Positions 50,193 through 64,000 of a stretch of DNA of 64,000 nucleotides are shown here, piece by piece (the first letter of the stretch is position 1; each line of letters opens with the position of its first letter). A model generated the notes under the pieces. The model saw only the letters and a list, made by a program, of their open reading frames with translations. It did no database searches and was not told the origin of the DNA. Position numbers and translations under genes: made by a program. The stretch comes from an uncultured Clostridium sp. GTDB taxonomy: Bacteria > Bacillota > Clostridia > Clostridiales > Clostridiaceae. The stretch covers positions 47,722-111,721 of the forward strand of contig UQBY01000006.1 in NCBI GenBank assembly GCA_900539375.1. Direction: 5' to 3'.

Positions 50193-50957
50193 TTATGCTC
50201 TCATTGCATCTATAGTTTCAAGACTTAATCCTGTTCCCTTTATAATTATTTCTATTGGCACATTCATACATAATAAATTTCTTACTATTATATTAACTCC
50301 ACTATTATCAATAAACCTTCCTATTTCTTCTATAGAAAGACCAGATGCTTCTGATATTAATTCTATAGATACATTCATTTTTAAAAGATTTCTTATTATT
50401 TCTCCAACTTTTCCTTGTTCAACTTCCACCTCATTAAGTTTTTCAGAATTTATTATAATGTCAGCAACTCTTTTAAGTTTTAATCCTGTAACTTGAACAA
50501 TACTTTCAATAGAAAAGTCAAGTTCCCACATTTTCCTTACTATAGATGAAAAGATTTCATTTTCTCTAATATTTATTAATCTGTTAATAGGCATATCTAC
50601 TGCTTTTGATATATCTTCTATTGGCATATTAGTACTTATTAAATCACTTACTACCCTTTTATATTTTGAAGTAATTTTATCTTCTTCAGGTATAGGTTCA
50701 AATTTGTTTTCTTCTTTTTGTGAAAATTTTTCATTTCTTATAACTTGAAATCCATCTTTTTTATCATTTTCAATAGGCTTTTCACTAACAGCAATAACTT
50801 CTTCCTTCTTTATTTCATTTTCACAAACTTTTTCTTCTTTAATAATATCCTTCTCTATGTTTTTATTGGTTATTTTATTTTTTTTATCTTTAACAAAAGG
50901 ACTTAAAATTTTATTCTTTAATTTTATTAATTTTCTATTAACTTGTCTTTTTTTCAC
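50193..50957 (-). CDS. Soluble protein: K/E-rich N-terminus plus 4 tandem ~35-40-aa HTH-like modules (same module as the C-terminus of 51831..54074)
   Basis: The modules are ...LISTNMPIEDISKAVDMPINRLINI, MWELDFSIESIVQVTGLKLKRVADI, IIRNLLKMNVSIELISEASGLSIEEIGRFI and IVRNLLCMNVPIEIIIKGTGLSLETIDAM. There is no TM helix or signal peptide. Confidence 0.6.
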   Translation of the reverse strand: MKKRQVNRKLIKLKNKILSPFVKDKKNKITNKNIEKDIIKEEKVCENEIKKEEVIAVSEKPIENDKKDGFQVIRNEKFSQKEENKFEPIPEEDKITSKYKRVVSDLISTNMPIEDISKAVDMPINRLINIRENEIFSSIVRKMWELDFSIESIVQVTGLKLKRVADIIINSEKLNEVEVEQGKVGEIIRNLLKMNVSIELISEASGLSIEEIGRFIDNSGVNIIVRNLLCMNVPIEIIIKGTGLSLETIDAMRA

Positions 50958-51008
50958 AATATATGTCCCCCCTAAAGTACAATAGAAATTTTCTTTAGTT
51001 ATTTTACC

Positions 51009-51725
51009 CTAGCCTCTCTTTATATAGTATTTTCTAACCATAATAACCATTGCTTCCATAGATATTACCATTACTACTGCTAAAATTAATGCTTGTGTAT
51101 ATATTGGGTCTTCTGTTCTTACTATTTCTTTATCATTAGCATTAGATGATTTTTTATTTGTTGTATTTTTATTTTCTTTTTCATACTCTTCTTTACTTAA
51201 AGTTGATTTATATACTTTAGGATTAAATATATATGTATATCTTTCAACTATTCCATCTTTATTTGTGTCTTCTTCCCCTTCTACTGAAATGCTCATTTTA
51301 AAACTTACATATGTATTTAATCTTAAATAGACGTTTTTTACTCTAAGCTTTAACCCTTTTAGTTCACTTAATTTTCCTGAAAAAATATGAACCTTTCCAT
51401 ATTCCTTATCATCCATAACTATTTTTACATTATAATTACTAATAATACCCTTTTCTATAGCTTCTTCTAAGGTATAATTTTCTCCAAAACTTGTATTTTT
51501 TATATAACTGTCATCAAACTCAATATAATCTACATATCCCTCTTCATTCCATGTATTGTTTATTGTAAATTCATGGTCTTTCCCATTTATAGGACACCAA
51601 AACTCTTCCCCACCAAGGTCTTTGTCTTCGTCAGCCATAACATTTATATAAGGAATACTTATAAGAGAACTTATTAATGCAAGACATAGGAAAAAAATCA
51701 CACCTATATATCCTATTTTTTTCAT
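51009..51725 (-). CDS. Secreted protein of unknown function with a C-terminal sorting-like signal (VRTEDP + TM + basic tail); paralogue of 63211..64000
   Basis: ORF track 51009..51746. I moved the start to the ATG (MKKIGYIGVIFF...) after GGAGGAG. It has a signal peptide. The shared core is SYIKNTSFGENYTLEEAIEKGIISNYNVKIV. The C-terminus is IVRTEDPIYTQALILAVVMVISMEAMVIMVRKYYIKRG. Confidence 0.6.
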   Translation of the reverse strand: MKKIGYIGVIFFLCLALISSLISIPYINVMADEDKDLGGEEFWCPINGKDHEFTINNTWNEEGYVDYIEFDDSYIKNTSFGENYTLEEAIEKGIISNYNVKIVMDDKEYGKVHIFSGKLSELKGLKLRVKNVYLRLNTYVSFKMSISVEGEEDTNKDGIVERYTYIFNPKVYKSTLSKEEYEKENKNTTNKKSSNANDKEIVRTEDPIYTQALILAVVMVISMEAMVIMVRKYYIKRG

Positions 51726-61471: not shown

Positions 61472-61489
61472 ATAAAACTACCTCCTTCT

Positions 61490-63211
61490 TTAATTAATAT
61501 TATATTGGTTTCCATTCATATAATGATAGATTCCATCAGAAGTTTTATAATAACTACTATTATAAACAGATATAACTCCATTATCTGTAATACTATTTTG
61601 GGGACTTATATAAACTTCTTTTATATTTTCACTTTTTTTAAATCTAAAACTATTTCTTACTTTATTATTTAATTTAGAATCCCAATTTCCATCTAATACA
61701 TAATAAGTTTCTTCTTCTGTCTTAGCACCATTTCTTAAATTATCCCATCTATAAATTTTCATATATAAATAGTTATTAGTAAACATTGAACTAGGAATTT
61801 TAAATTCATACCATATTCCATTTGGATTTAATTTTTCCATAAATTCATTAGGTTTACTAACCATATAAGATTTATATTTAGTTCCACCTTCCCCACAAGA
61901 GTTTTCGCTATCTGAACTATTAAATTCTAAAAATAATCTACCAGCACACATTTTTGTTTGATCAAAATAAACAACTATACCATCATAATCTTCCTCAGTT
62001 GTTTCTCCATCTCCAGTTTCAGGACCACTTTCTCCTGTTCCTCCGCCAGATGATTGTAATTTGGTATATTTTATTTCTAAATTTTCAATAGGCTTTTTAT
62101 CAGTTTGTGCAGTAAAATAAGCTAAAGTTCCTCCTAAATTAAATACTACAATTATACAAACAAATATCATTCCAAAAGCTCTAATAGCTTCCCTTTTCCC
62201 TAAATTTTGTATTCTAGCTCTCATTTTAAATATATTTACTCTAGGTTTAACACTAATAACTCCTGCTAAAACAAGGCTAGAGAATGTTATTGATATTATT
62301 AAGAATAACATTCCTACTTTAAAGTTGTATAAGAATCCTCCACTTGTTATACTTACCATAGCCATTGTAGTTAAAAGTATTATCATTTTTTCATTAAAGC
62401 TTGTTTCAAATCCTGCTATTTTATCGTATATCTTATGTTTTGATTTTACTCCTAATACTAGCATAAGCATACTTGTTGTAAATAGCATTGATATTATTAA
62501 GAATACTATTCCTGCTTTAAGATTTTTTAAGAAACCTCCACAGGTTAAACTTACCATAATTATTGTACTTAATAGTATTATCATCTTTTGGTTAAAGGTT
62601 GTTTTTACTCTTATAACTTTTCCAATAGCTGAGTTTTCTTCTTTAGCTTCTATTACTATTAAATATAATGCTAAGGCTGAAATAATTGAAACAATTAAGA
62701 ACAAAATACCTGCTTTAAAGTTTTGTATAAACCCTCCACAGGTTAAACTTACTAATATTAATGCAGTTAATAGAATAAACATCTTTTCCCCATTTGTTCT
62801 CTCTGCTAATATTACTTTTTTAATTTCTCCCCTTTTAGAATTTATTCCATACATTAATAAGAATGTAATTGCTACAAAAACTATTGAAACAATTAAAAAT
62901 ACAATTCCCATTGTAAAGTTTTTAACAAAACCTCCATAGGTTAAACTTACTAAAATAAGAATTGATAATACTACAATTGCTCTATCATTAAAGGTTCTTC
63001 CTTCTCCAACAAGTTTATCTGCACCCTTTGCAATATATTTCATTATAAATAAAAGTAATACCAATCCTAAGGATACTCCAAAAGATATTCCTAAAAATTT
63101 CATTCCAACTTTAAAATTATCTAAAAAACCAGAACAGGTGACACCTATAATAACTAAAGTAATTAAAGCTATAAGCCCTGCTACAAGTTTCTTATTACTT
63201 TTTTTATTCAT
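61490..63211 (-). CDS. Membrane protein: five tandem ~60-aa 2-TM modules, then an internal SipW-cognate-type signal sequence (GGTLAYFTAQTD, residues ~360-371) and a ~200-aa extracellular domain
   Basis: 573 aa. Modules such as FNQKMIILLSTIIMVSLTCGGFLKNLKAGIVFLIISMLFTTSMLMLVLG are repeated 5 times. Then come RAFGMIFVCIIVVFNLGGTLAYFTAQTDKKP and a G/E/T linker. The C-terminal domain reads GIVVYFDQ...NGIWYEFKIP...YLYMKIY. The start codon overlaps the upstream stop (TAATG). Confidence 0.65.
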   Translation of the reverse strand: MNKKSNKKLVAGLIALITLVIIGVTCSGFLDNFKVGMKFLGISFGVSLGLVLLLFIMKYIAKGADKLVGEGRTFNDRAIVVLSILILVSLTYGGFVKNFTMGIVFLIVSIVFVAITFLLMYGINSKRGEIKKVILAERTNGEKMFILLTALILVSLTCGGFIQNFKAGILFLIVSIISALALYLIVIEAKEENSAIGKVIRVKTTFNQKMIILLSTIIMVSLTCGGFLKNLKAGIVFLIISMLFTTSMLMLVLGVKSKHKIYDKIAGFETSFNEKMIILLTTMAMVSITSGGFLYNFKVGMLFLIISITFSSLVLAGVISVKPRVNIFKMRARIQNLGKREAIRAFGMIFVCIIVVFNLGGTLAYFTAQTDKKPIENLEIKYTKLQSSGGGTGESGPETGDGETTEEDYDGIVVYFDQTKMCAGRLFLEFNSSDSENSCGEGGTKYKSYMVSKPNEFMEKLNPNGIWYEFKIPSSMFTNNYLYMKIYRWDNLRNGAKTEEETYYVLDGNWDSKLNNKVRNSFRFKKSENIKEVYISPQNSITDNGVISVYNSSYYKTSDGIYHYMNGNQYNIN

Positions 63212-64000
63212 TAAGCATCACCTCTCATTTTAAAAAACTTTCTATAATCTTCTTTTATTTTTCTTCCTGTTGATAAAAACATTATTTCTAAACTTATTAC
63301 CATTATTATAGCTAATATTGTCATTGAATAATAATTTTGGTCACCAGTTTTTACAGGTACTTTATTGCTACCTCCACCATCTTCATATCCACCATTATTA
63401 CTATTTCCTCCTGAACTACTTCCACCACCATTATTATTTCCTCCTCCTGGATTATTAGGATTACTTGGATTGTTTGGGTTGTCTGGATTGCTTGGATTAT
63501 CCGGATTACTTGGATTTGGATTATCTGGTGTTGTTGTATCTGGCTTAGGTGTTGGTGTATCTGGATTTGGTTTTGGAGTACTTGTTTCTGGTTTATTTGG
63601 ATTTGGTTTATCTGGTTCAGGTTTATCTGGATTTGGTTTGTCTGGATCAGGTTTATCTGGCTCTGATGGATCTGTTGGAGTTGGATTTATTTTATATGCA
63701 TGAGGATAAAATACATAAATATATTGCATATCTTGATATTTATTTCCTGACATTGCATCAAAGGATATATTTATACTAAAATCAACTACAGTATCAAGCT
63801 TCATAAAAATATCTTTCTTTAATAAAACCCTTTCATCAGCTAAATCCATAAGCTTTCCATTATATATAACCTCTTTACCATATCTACTATCATTTAATTT
63901 TATTACCACATCATAACCTTGAATTAATCCCTTTTCTTTAGCTTCTTCTAAAGTAAATTCTTCTCCTGTTGCTGTATTTCTTATATAGCTTCCACTAAAT
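63211..64000 (-). CDS. Secreted Pro/Asn/Gly-rich protein with a C-terminal sorting-like signal (PVKTGD + TM + basic tail); paralogue of 51009..51725; N-terminus lies beyond the window edge
   Basis: The ORF track starts at a GTG (63909), but the frame stays open to nt 64000: ...FSGSYIRNTATGEEFTLEEAKEKGLIQGYDVVIKLND, which aligns with DSYIKNTSFGENYTLEEAIEKGIISNYNVKIVMDD of the 245-aa protein. Then a PDKPNPDKPEPDKP / NPSNPDNP / GGGNNNGGGSSS low-complexity run. The C-terminus is KVPVKTGDQNYYSMTILAIIMVISLEIMFLSTGRKIKEDYRK. Confidence 0.7.
   Translation of the reverse strand, partial: FSGSYIRNTATGEEFTLEEAKEKGLIQGYDVVIKLNDSRYGKEVIYNGKLMDLADERVLLKKDIFMKLDTVVDFSINISFDAMSGNKYQDMQYIYVFYPHAYKINPTPTDPSEPDKPDPDKPNPDKPEPDKPNPNKPETSTPKPNPDTPTPKPDTTTPDNPNPSNPDNPSNPDNPNNPSNPNNPGGGNNNGGGSSSGGNSNNGGYEDGGGSNKVPVKTGDQNYYSMTILAIIMVISLEIMFLSTGRKIKEDYRKFFKMRGDA

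Follow-up and report, generated by a model that had tools for sequence, protein, structure and literature searches.

In Bacillus subtilis, TasA polymerises via an N-terminal strand that is exposed by cleavage (PMC9674648), and TapA gives an N-terminal strand to TasA, its own domain being otherwise complete (PMC10151520, PMC9674648). In Clostridium perfringens the BsaA polymer is surface-associated, and the operons of the BsaA family comprise signal peptidase, anchor-motif and adhesin-domain genes (PMC7395162, PMC11580942). The relatives of BsaA and TasA are very divergent in sequence, and their operons encode several paralogues next to signal peptidases and anchor-motif proteins (PMC11580942); archaeal TasA-like filaments, also a sequence-divergent class, polymerise by donor-strand complementation (PMC9674648). 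Here we analyse a locus of nine co-directional genes (genes 1 to 9, Table 1) at positions 50193-64000 of a 64,000-nt stretch of DNA, called the window in the following, from an uncultured gut/rumen Clostridium (contig UQBY01000006.1). A reading made from the letters of this DNA (the sequence-only reading) had proposed the locus as a novel nine-gene system built around an aberrant SipW-type signal peptidase, and all nine minus-strand open reading frames (ORFs) are present where that reading had placed them. We interpret the locus, with moderate confidence, as a SipW-dependent surface assembly of the TasA/BsaA type, the most likely structure being a fibre or stalk that assembles by beta-strand complementation and has exposed parts that are exchangeable between strains.

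Like the tapA-sipW-tasA operon of B. subtilis (PDB 5OF1, 8AUR), the locus has its own dedicated signal peptidase of the endoplasmic reticulum (ER) type, its substrate signals end in ...A-(A/Y)F with a new N-terminus that is predicted to be the assembly strand, the released part of gene 2 has the layout of TapA (an N-terminal strand followed by a complete domain) and the C-terminal NxYQ...ATQxN motif of TasA is found again. It differs in its subunits, which are 250-410 amino acids (aa) long with large inserts and fall below the Peptidase_M73 and Foldseek thresholds, in the presence of a second subunit with a 650-aa core, in the putative anchoring, which would go via C-terminal transmembrane (TM) or sorting-like signals on separate beta-sandwich proteins and not via TapA, and in the length of its SipW (747 aa against ~190 aa). 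With the sipW-bsaABCRSD operon of C. perfringens it shares a clostridial SipW and, among the secreted proteins, several paralogous subunits as well as accessory ones; unlike that operon, it is without the conserved N-E-K triad, the two-component system and the von Willebrand A protein, and has polytopic pro-regions, cargo that is swapped between strains and a SipW with a giant tail. The archaeal filaments (AbpA bundling pili and their relatives), which we likened to the locus by description only, are also made of substrates of ER/archaeal-type peptidases, whereas they belong to another domain of life and have been described without anchor, cargo or polytopic components.

The sequence-only reading had called this an undescribed SipW-dependent pathway. 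This stands insofar as the locus itself is uncharacterised and has an intact SipW-class peptidase among proteins with AYF signals, but the general kind of system, in which one operon encodes TasA/BsaA paralogues, anchor-motif proteins and a signal peptidase, is already known (PMC11580942). What is new is the giant cytoplasmic repeat tail of the peptidase with its soluble paralogue gene 9, the polytopic pro-region ahead of an internal SipW signal, and a cassette-like hypervariability with exchangeable binding cargo.

The SipW-class peptidase and its predicted substrates

Gene 7 scored 68.6 bits against the model TIGR02228 (cut-off 51.85) over residues 16-168, as expected for the SipW-type peptidase that had been proposed, and 63.9 bits against the Bacillus SipW equivalog NF046067, for which 190 bits are required. 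Judged by these scores, it is of the same class as Bacillus SipW and is not its orthologue. A loss of the catalytic Ser or His was looked for and not seen: S58, H101 and D124 are invariant in 11 aligned sequences, and S58 and H101 align with the 'SGSMEP' and 'VHRV' boxes of human SEC11A (PDB 7P2P), while the usual GDxN box is changed to G-I/T-S...N-A-D-D. Since the catalytic residues are conserved, the enzyme is probably active. Two hydrophobic segments (residues 19-37 and 149-167) flank the catalytic domain and, given this layout and the established topology of SipW, everything past residue ~170 is predicted to be cytoplasmic.

The tripeptide AYF occurs three times in the 23,586 ORF residues of the window, and two of these occurrences are in this locus, each right after a hydrophobic stretch, a coincidence that goes beyond chance. 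One of them closes the signal of gene 3, as the sequence-only reading had noticed. The other belongs to the internal signal of gene 2, a protein with eleven hydrophobic segments, ten of which form five exact 66-aa modules with a GGF motif at residues 27, 93, 159, 225 and 291, so that both the repeated 2-TM modules and the internal signal claimed for it are borne out. This signal is kept as GTWAYF or GTFAYF in alleles and orthologues, and after the predicted cut the proteins of the gene 2 type continue, in alleles and orthologues alike, with YF(T/N), after few further residues with a strand-like segment I-x-x-L-x-(I/V)-x-Y and, in most cases, with a Gly/Ser linker.

A third predicted substrate is encoded just outside the window. 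Copies of the locus identical to the window are found in many metagenome contigs and in a metagenome-assembled genome (MAG) labelled Clostridium sp. (GCA_047240145.1), and in such contigs a gene for a 372-aa protein lies directly before gene 1. This protein starts with MISKKSRKVVAALLIGATVCASGTFA-YFNSKTD (signal GTFAYFNSKTD) and ends with ...FTIVATQENNPGWNVDGT. Its N-terminus resembles that of gene 3 (YFNS...LNIKNGSV, 41% identity over 34 aa), and the two proteins have in common a C-terminal ATQENNPxWNxDGT, which in gene 3 is found as ...AKATQENNPAWNEDGT at residues 656-669. Because both ends are shared, we consider gene 3 as built on the frame of the 372-aa protein, enlarged by long inserts and by an adhesin extension at its C-terminus. 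The model of SipW-cognate signals, TIGR04088, was the top or sole signal-type match for all three AYF N-terminal regions and matched 38 of 59 members of the 372-aa family at E<=1; genes 1 and 8 gave no match to it. The 372-aa family comprises ~86 clusters, none of them named and none with a Pfam domain. In the locus in general, the components other than the glycosyltransferase of family 2 (GT2), the pyruvyl transferase and the adhesin domains are without a Pfam or NCBIfam name.

None of the substrates had looked TasA-like in the sequence-only reading. That impression was an artefact, as the window ends before the gene of the probable main subunit, the 372-aa protein; with TasA/camelysin, the family of this protein and gene 3 have in common the signal, the N-terminal segment and the C-terminal NxYQ...ATQxN motif. 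After the TasA sequence had been verified against PDB 8AUR, the 372-aa family was aligned to it with hhalign, and the best region was 'NKYQ...FSFEATQWN' against 'NKYQ...FTIVATQEN'. Peptidase_M73 was the commonest Pfam match in the 372-aa family (8 of 59 members, all weak, best E=0.0015). The likeness of the 372-aa family and of gene 3 to TasA is thus a weak and statistically insecure one.

In the interpretation that we favour, cleavage by SipW after Ala would expose N-terminal strands, the 372-aa protein would polymerise as the main subunit and gene 3 would be a large subunit of the same frame, bearing adhesin domains (MucBP here). The released part of gene 2 would be a TapA-like 'strand plus cargo' adaptor that adds a variable binding domain to the structure or starts its assembly, and genes 1 and 8 would tether the structure to the wall or to the membrane. 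The 10-TM pro-region of gene 2, the 7-TM gene 6, the 570-aa tail of SipW and gene 9 are lineage-specific additions.

Several results weigh against this interpretation. Polymerisation, cleavage and strand insertion are all steps predicted from sequence. The TIGR04088 scores are all below the cut-off of 19 bits (14.2 for gene 3, 17.1 for the internal signal of gene 2 and 16.3 for the 372-aa protein), and the hhalign alignment with TasA has E=0.11. Neither the 372-aa protein nor gene 3 matched Peptidase_M73 (Pfam PF12389), and the single family match to it that we inspected covers residues 2-48 only, that is the signal and the first strand. An AlphaFold2 (AF2) model of the 372-aa protein (pLDDT 76.9) is beta-rich with helical inserts; when it was run with Foldseek against the PDB nothing was found at E<=0.001, TasA was not among the listed matches and the top insignificant neighbours were jelly-rolls. 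A profile of the family against PDB sequences gave nothing relevant. Since neither the structure search nor the profile searches gave a significant link to TasA, we did not file the subunits as members of the TasA family; the 372-aa family appears to share the SipW-type signal, the N-terminal segment and the C-terminal motif with TasA/camelysin, its membership of the TasA fold being unproven. As for BsaA, the family model TIGR04090 reached 15.2 bits of 60, touching the signal region only, and the 59-sequence alignment has no invariant Lys in the mature part that could belong to an isopeptide lock of the BsaA type (Asn-Glu-Lys triad). The cassette of C. bornimense, described below, has no SipW within 8 kb.

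The putative anchors, genes 1 and 8, have to be weighed in the same way. As had been claimed, genes 1 and 8 are paralogues (37% identity, E=6e-38), and gene 1, which was rightly called partial as it runs off the window, is 330-340 aa long in the identical metagenome contigs. Both have ordinary signal peptides (cuts VKA-E and VMA-D, respectively) and both end in x-[KR]-T-[GE]-D, a TM segment with a Glu inside it (VISxE) and a basic tail, a pattern with which anchoring in the wall or membrane is likely. The Glu is invariant across all orthologues (VISMEAM in gene 8, 51009-51125; VISLEIM in gene 1, 63211-63360). It suggests a specific intramembrane partner, e.g. the proteins with 2-TM modules or SipW, rather than a passive anchor.

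In some respects the locus is like sortase-assembled pili and LPXTG adhesins, where a tip or cargo adhesin, a major subunit and a wall-proximal anchored protein are encoded together, the exposed subunits are strain-variable and an x-K-T-G-x motif is followed by a TM segment and a basic tail, as in proteins of the genes 1/8 type (LTKTGS in C. bornimense). In contrast to them, the subunits of the locus have SipW-type signals instead of sorting signals, no sortase was found by its motif TLxTC in the window or flanks, gene 1 remains below the LPXTG models (TIGR01167, 12.5 against 15.9 bits; PF00746, 12.3 against 20) and gene 8 has T-E-D in place of T-G; a cognate sortase may be encoded elsewhere. 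The AF2 core of gene 8 is all-beta (~135 residues, pLDDT ~90), and its Foldseek neighbours are weak and generic jelly-rolls or beta-sandwiches (nucleoplasmin, Pgp3, CBM29; E ~0.006-0.07), while hhalign of genes 8 and 1 against the 372-aa family found nothing. After these two results, we infer only that genes 1 and 8 might be strand-less TasA-like acceptors.

Recurrence and strain variation of the cassette

In the following, L-numbers (L005-L020) are comparison contigs or loci and P-numbers are individual homologous proteins. The idea of a nine-gene system had to be given up, since the conserved core recurs elsewhere without the giant tail and the locus extends upstream of the window. In the complete genome of C. 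bornimense (L015) we found a 255-aa subunit (...SFA-YFTGKND ... ATQENNPGWSEDGE), a 224-aa protein homologous to genes 1 and 8 that has the LTKTGS, TM segment and basic tail already mentioned at its end, a 679-aa protein that is homologous to the gene 3 core and ends in TQENNPNWSESGT, and a 48-aa protein that consists of a SipW-type signal and YFNGEAEAKIPTLEVEYNNKK only. The strand segment of gene 2 thus stands alone in this 48-aa protein. In L020, an unrelated context adjoining infC-rpmI-rplT, the same subunit, anchored protein and large core are accompanied by a 381-aa protein with an N-terminal SipW-type signal and by a 255-aa SipW, the short tail of which is unrelated to that of gene 7 (Table 1 gives the identity of the peptidase domains).

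Genes 6, 7, 8 and 9 occur together wherever the fusion occurs and the contig permits (L011-L014), with gene 6 linked to the fusion in L013 and L014 and gene 9 conserved beside it in L011-L013. The gene 2 of L013, which is from a different species, has just two 2-TM modules, another ectodomain and GTWA-YF as its internal signal, whereas the counterparts of gene 2 in C. bornimense and L020 have plain N-terminal signals; the polytopic pro-region is thus specific to the lineage with the fused SipW.

We compared the window with contigs of the same or sister species (Table 1, last column). The only hypervariable segments are exactly the three predicted SipW substrates, and in gene 2 the break in conservation coincides with the internal signal. 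In these variable parts the strains diverge as much from each other as from other genera (L015, L020); the orthologues of the gene 3 core in L013, L015, L016, L017 and L020 have 29-38% identity. As the predicted substrates coincide with the hypervariable segments, this comparison gives independent support to the idea that they are exposed products of one process. In L005 (1501-5014), gene 3 is split into ORFs of 389 and 789 aa, by a frameshift or an assembly error.

The binding domains carried by the exposed parts differ between alleles. One allele of the gene 2 ectodomain has a carbohydrate-binding module of the CBM26 family (34.8 bits, cut-off 28.1) and a weak MucBP, and another has Y_Y_Y/PKD Ig repeats. 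The CBM25/26-like patterns that had been read in genes 2 and 3, and the CBM-like domain read in gene 6, did not hold: none of these genes matched Pfam PF03423 or PF16738 at E<=0.1, and the same library found CBM26 at 83.5 and 46.4 bits in the amylases of the window, which served as positive control. The starch locus in the flank comprises a MalK-type ATPase, a solute-binding protein, two permeases, LacI and GH77. The minus strand of window 4068-15057 encodes three large secreted proteins (1316, 972 and 1261 aa) with ordinary AxA signals and without a wall-sorting signal; two of them are alpha-amylases with CBM26, MucBP, SSSPR-51 and Y_Y_Y domains. Between gene 3 and the amylase-locus proteins, the MucBP repeats have 31-35% identity. 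What the sequence-only reading had hinted about starch adhesion is therefore retained in part, because a CBM26 allele of gene 2 exists and real starch genes flank the locus, but the allele in the window has no CBM; adhesion to starch granules is plausible for some strains and is not a general property of the locus.

Genes 4 and 5 were rightly recognised as a GT2 and a pyruvyl transferase (Table 1); the GT2 has no TM segment, and gene 5 scored 27.6 bits of the 213 required for CsaB. Although embedded in the locus, as the sequence-only reading had put it, they are not core components. Both are present in L018 and missing from the locus in L013, L016 and L017: an IS605-family TnpB/OrfB gene takes their place in L016 (16077-16994), and in L017 the corresponding interval is 1.3 kb long and has no ORF of at least 40 aa. 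In L007 (16438-17734) the pair is disrupted, the pyruvyl transferase being down to a 56-aa remnant. We consider the two genes as allele-linked accessories, possibly for glycan decoration. Gene 6 has seven hydrophobic segments, and the 2-TM module is common to it and gene 2 (E=2e-12), so that the three paralogies proposed for the locus (gene 8 with gene 1, gene 9 with the tail of gene 7, gene 6 with the module of gene 2) all hold.

Table 1. Features of the locus, with positions in the window and identity to the window in contigs of the same or sister species
Feature	Position	Strand	Characteristics	Identity
SGNH-like protein, upstream of window				79-97%
372-aa protein, upstream of window				31-36%
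Gene 1, partial in window	63211..64000	-	ordinary signal peptide, ~150-aa beta-sandwich, Pro/Asn/Gly-rich stalk, VKTGD + TM + basic tail	83-94%
Gene 2, N-terminal polytopic region (aa 1-335)	62207..63211	-	five tandem 66-aa 2-TM modules	86-99%
Gene 2, internal SipW-type signal	62120..62224	-	basic n-region, TM 345-363, GGTLA-YF, predicted cut after A364	
Gene 2, ectodomain	61490..62119	-	YFTAQTDKKPIENLEIKYTKL strand segment, Gly/Ser linker, ~170-aa cargo domain	unrelated between strains beyond signal and first strand
Gene 3, signal and conserved core (aa 28-669)	59465..61471	-	TTSA-YF, predicted cut after A27; core ends ATQENNPAWNEDGT; CarboxypepD_reg insert	30-38% (core)
Gene 3, allele-specific C-terminal extension	57968..59464	-	Ig-like region, 3 MucBP repeats (59-64 bits), terminal domain	
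Intrinsic terminator after gene 3	57853..57911	-	19-bp stem, 10-nt loop, T-run; read directly, absent from consensus scan list	
Gene 4, GT2	56774..57745	-	PF00535 118 bits; present with only some alleles	88-96% where present
Gene 5, polysaccharide pyruvyl transferase	55652..56743	-	PF04230 (PS_pyruv_trans) 133 bits	88-96% where present
Gene 6, 7-TM	54239..55621	-	three 2-TM modules + one TM, 230-aa ectodomain; always directly upstream of SipW fusion	93-99%
Gene 7, SipW-class signal peptidase domain (aa 1-175)	53550..54074	-	TM1, catalytic S58/H101/D124, TM2; 56% identical to 255-aa SipW of L020	
Gene 7, cytoplasmic linker	52737..53549	-	charged segment, predicted coiled coil aa ~262-310, length-variable Gln/Asn-rich segment	
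Gene 7, seven tandem HTH-like repeats (aa 447-747)	51834..52736	-	~37-47 aa each; HTH_26 26.7 bits; TIGR01784 tail E=1.3e-9	
Intrinsic terminator after gene 7	51792..51826	-	16-bp stem + T-run; found by scan	
Gene 8, gene 1 paralogue	51009..51746	-	ordinary signal, beta-sandwich, VRTED + TM with conserved Glu + basic tail	
Gene 9, soluble	50193..50957	-	Lys-rich N-terminus + four HTH-like repeats as in gene 7 tail	

Alternative explanations

The explanation that survives best after the assembly reading is one without any fibre, in which SipW would mature individual strain-variable adhesins that are held by the anchored proteins of genes 1 and 8 or by the wall. We regard it as possible but not probable. 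The structural and profile matches to TasA are not significant, gene 3 resembles a classical multi-domain adhesin with MucBP repeats, the cargo domains are binding modules and hypervariability is expected for any exposed antigen. Yet the N-terminal segment and the ATQENNPxW frame in two otherwise different proteins are hard to explain as independent adhesins, and the same is true of the 48-aa protein made of signal and strand; moreover, fibres are formed by every SipW substrate family studied.

We also considered that the locus might not be one system but at least three adjacent transcription units, namely the cassette from the 372-aa gene to gene 3, the glycan pair of genes 4 and 5 acting on a wall polymer or exopolysaccharide, and the membrane or regulatory group of genes 6 to 9. 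Both terminators named in the sequence-only reading are real (51826..51792 via the scan, 57911..57853 read directly as a hairpin with a T-run), so that two strong terminators lie inside the locus; the GT2 and the pyruvyl transferase are gained and lost independently, and the C. bornimense cassette has no SipW, gene 6 or gene 9 nearby. This explanation is nevertheless unlikely, as the rare 2-TM module is common to gene 2 of the cassette and to gene 6, gene 8 is paralogous to gene 1 of the cassette, the sole SipW-class peptidase seen is in the third unit and its predicted substrates in the first, cassette and SipW are contiguous in L020 and genes 2, 3, 6, 7, 8 and 9 are kept together in L013.

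A matrix centred on a polysaccharide, in which the GT2 and the pyruvyl transferase would make or modify a pyruvylated glycan, genes 2 and 6 would export or polymerise it and the secreted proteins would bind it, would agree with the solid matches of both enzymes and with the polytopic ectodomain proteins that flank them, but is very improbable given that both enzymes are absent from the otherwise intact loci L013, L016 and L017, that L007 has lost one of them, that the searches with genes 2 and 6 gave no family of flippases, polymerases or synthases and that the GT2 has no TM segment.

The peptidase tail, the borders of the locus and their meaning

The SipW-dependent assembly that we favour is extended in this lineage by the tail of gene 7, ~570 residues that comprise a charged stretch, a coiled-coil-like segment, a Gln/Asn-rich segment and seven repeats. 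The coiled-coil-like segment (~50 residues) has columns conserved in all orthologues; the Gln/Asn-rich segment varies in length among them and is absent from the two most distant, P0009 and P0010. The DNA encoding this segment (window 52737-53200, aa ~290-445) yields long spurious ORFs on both strands (52781-53119 and 52833-53129). The repeats follow the pattern 'IAKNLLxMxMxxxxIxxATGLxxxxIxxLK'. Their score with the helix-turn-helix (HTH) model HTH_26 exceeds the cut-off of 22 bits with no single stretch passing, of the Rpn-family model TIGR01784 only the 34 C-terminal positions match the tail, the whole model being below its cut-off, and among PDB sequences no solved structure matched the repeats. 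Capture of the repeats from the neighbouring Rpn/DUF4351 genes was considered and rejected, since the pairwise similarity was not significant.

That gene 7 is about four times the normal SipW size was correct (747 against ~190 aa), and such a fusion is very rare. A homology search with the full 747-aa protein gave 12 matches from 8,000 candidates, a result probably swamped by the Gln/Asn-rich segment; for this reason we took the distribution of the fusion from an exhaustive search with the tail and from a genome scan. The tail (phmmer, 1.84 billion representatives) gave ten matches at E<=0.001, which were the fusions themselves, the gene 9 family and a few small two-repeat proteins, and the fusion was found in 4 of the 185,579 species genomes scanned, all four being MAGs of uncultured Clostridium or Bacillota. 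Gene 9 is made of the same modules as the tail (E=2e-19), as had been seen. Among the homologues, P0122 (379 aa) has a lipoprotein-like signal (...FFGCAS) and two C-terminal copies of 'AKNLIxMGMxPExISxATGxSIEKVNxLK'; this signal would put the repeat outside the cell, which is a poor fit with a purely DNA-binding role of the module. Of two other SipW-class fusions (P0011 and P0012), one has 531 aa with a lamin-tail domain after the second TM segment and another has 415 aa with a long polytopic N-terminus before the S26 domain. The extended architectures of SipW may be more varied than the textbook form of 190 aa.

The least supported, and speculative, part of our interpretation is that the polytopic modules form a membrane platform around SipW and that the tail and gene 9 act as a cytoplasmic regulatory or scaffolding pair. 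The sole precedent for regulation by the tail is a peptidase-independent function in B. subtilis: Terra et al. reportedly described in 2012 a second, regulatory role of SipW that requires its short cytoplasmic C-terminus. As a test of whether the gene 7 tail binds local DNA, we compared the intergenic regions of the locus, and no operator-like DNA repeats common to them were found beyond the terminator hairpins and one short shared 12-mer.

Taken together, these elements can be combined into a tip-first plug-in fibre with a peptidase that itself signals to the cytoplasm, a joint reading that we hold as rather doubtful. Precisely, gene 2 with its strand and cargo would initiate or cap a donor-strand polymer of hypervariable subunits, the 10-TM pro-region would hold the cargo until cleavage, the polymer would be closed by the anchored acceptor sandwiches of genes 1 and 8, and cassette exchange would swap the binding specificity, e.g. 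CBM26 for starch granules. The seven HTH-like repeats would bind DNA or sequester the four-repeat gene 9, coupling surface assembly to transcription, as a much enlarged version of the regulatory role of the short C-terminus of B. subtilis SipW.

Around these genes the G+C content is 24-36% throughout the window. In the contigs identical to the window, the 372-aa gene is preceded by the gene of a 417-aa SGNH-like protein, which ends in LVQTGD, a TM segment and a basic tail. The 372-aa gene looks monocistronic; in L008 it has a 445-nt non-coding leader on its 5' side (7241-7685) and is followed by a GC-rich hairpin and a T-run (8805-9008). This arrangement is what one would expect of a major-subunit gene that is highly expressed and separately terminated, with read-through into gene 1. 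Two stretches of L008 (5824-5986 and 7241-7330), downstream of a 128-aa ORF and of the 417-aa SGNH-like gene, respectively, are similar over ~80 nt, a terminator-like hairpin included (AGGAACTTGAT...AGTTTCT), and this similarity suggests a local duplication or a small repeated element. Further upstream the flank is strain-variable (L007, L009, L016-L019), with pairs of AAA_21 and RloB genes (sometimes two), Rpn-family Transposase_31/DUF4351 genes, a Band_7 protein and IS605 tnpB. The AAA_21/RloB pairs look defence-type, so that the locus appears to border a variable island.

Fibres of the SipW/TasA type have been studied in Bacillus, C. perfringens and a few archaea, and how they are anchored, initiated and decorated are still open questions. 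The locus would offer a natural dissection of these steps, with the strand-only mini-protein of C. bornimense, the strand-plus-cargo adaptors and the separate anchored partners. For a signal peptidase with a 570-residue multi-repeat tail and a soluble paralogue we found no described counterpart; if the tail is regulatory, it would be a new secretion-coupled signalling architecture. A way of attaching to resistant starch without cohesin-dockerin amylosomes is suggested by the CBM26 allele, which lies next to amylase and maltodextrin genes. The ancient swapped alleles, confined to the exposed parts, suggest a major role of such structures in the strain individuality of gut and rumen clostridia, with phage, immunity and substrate choice as candidate pressures.

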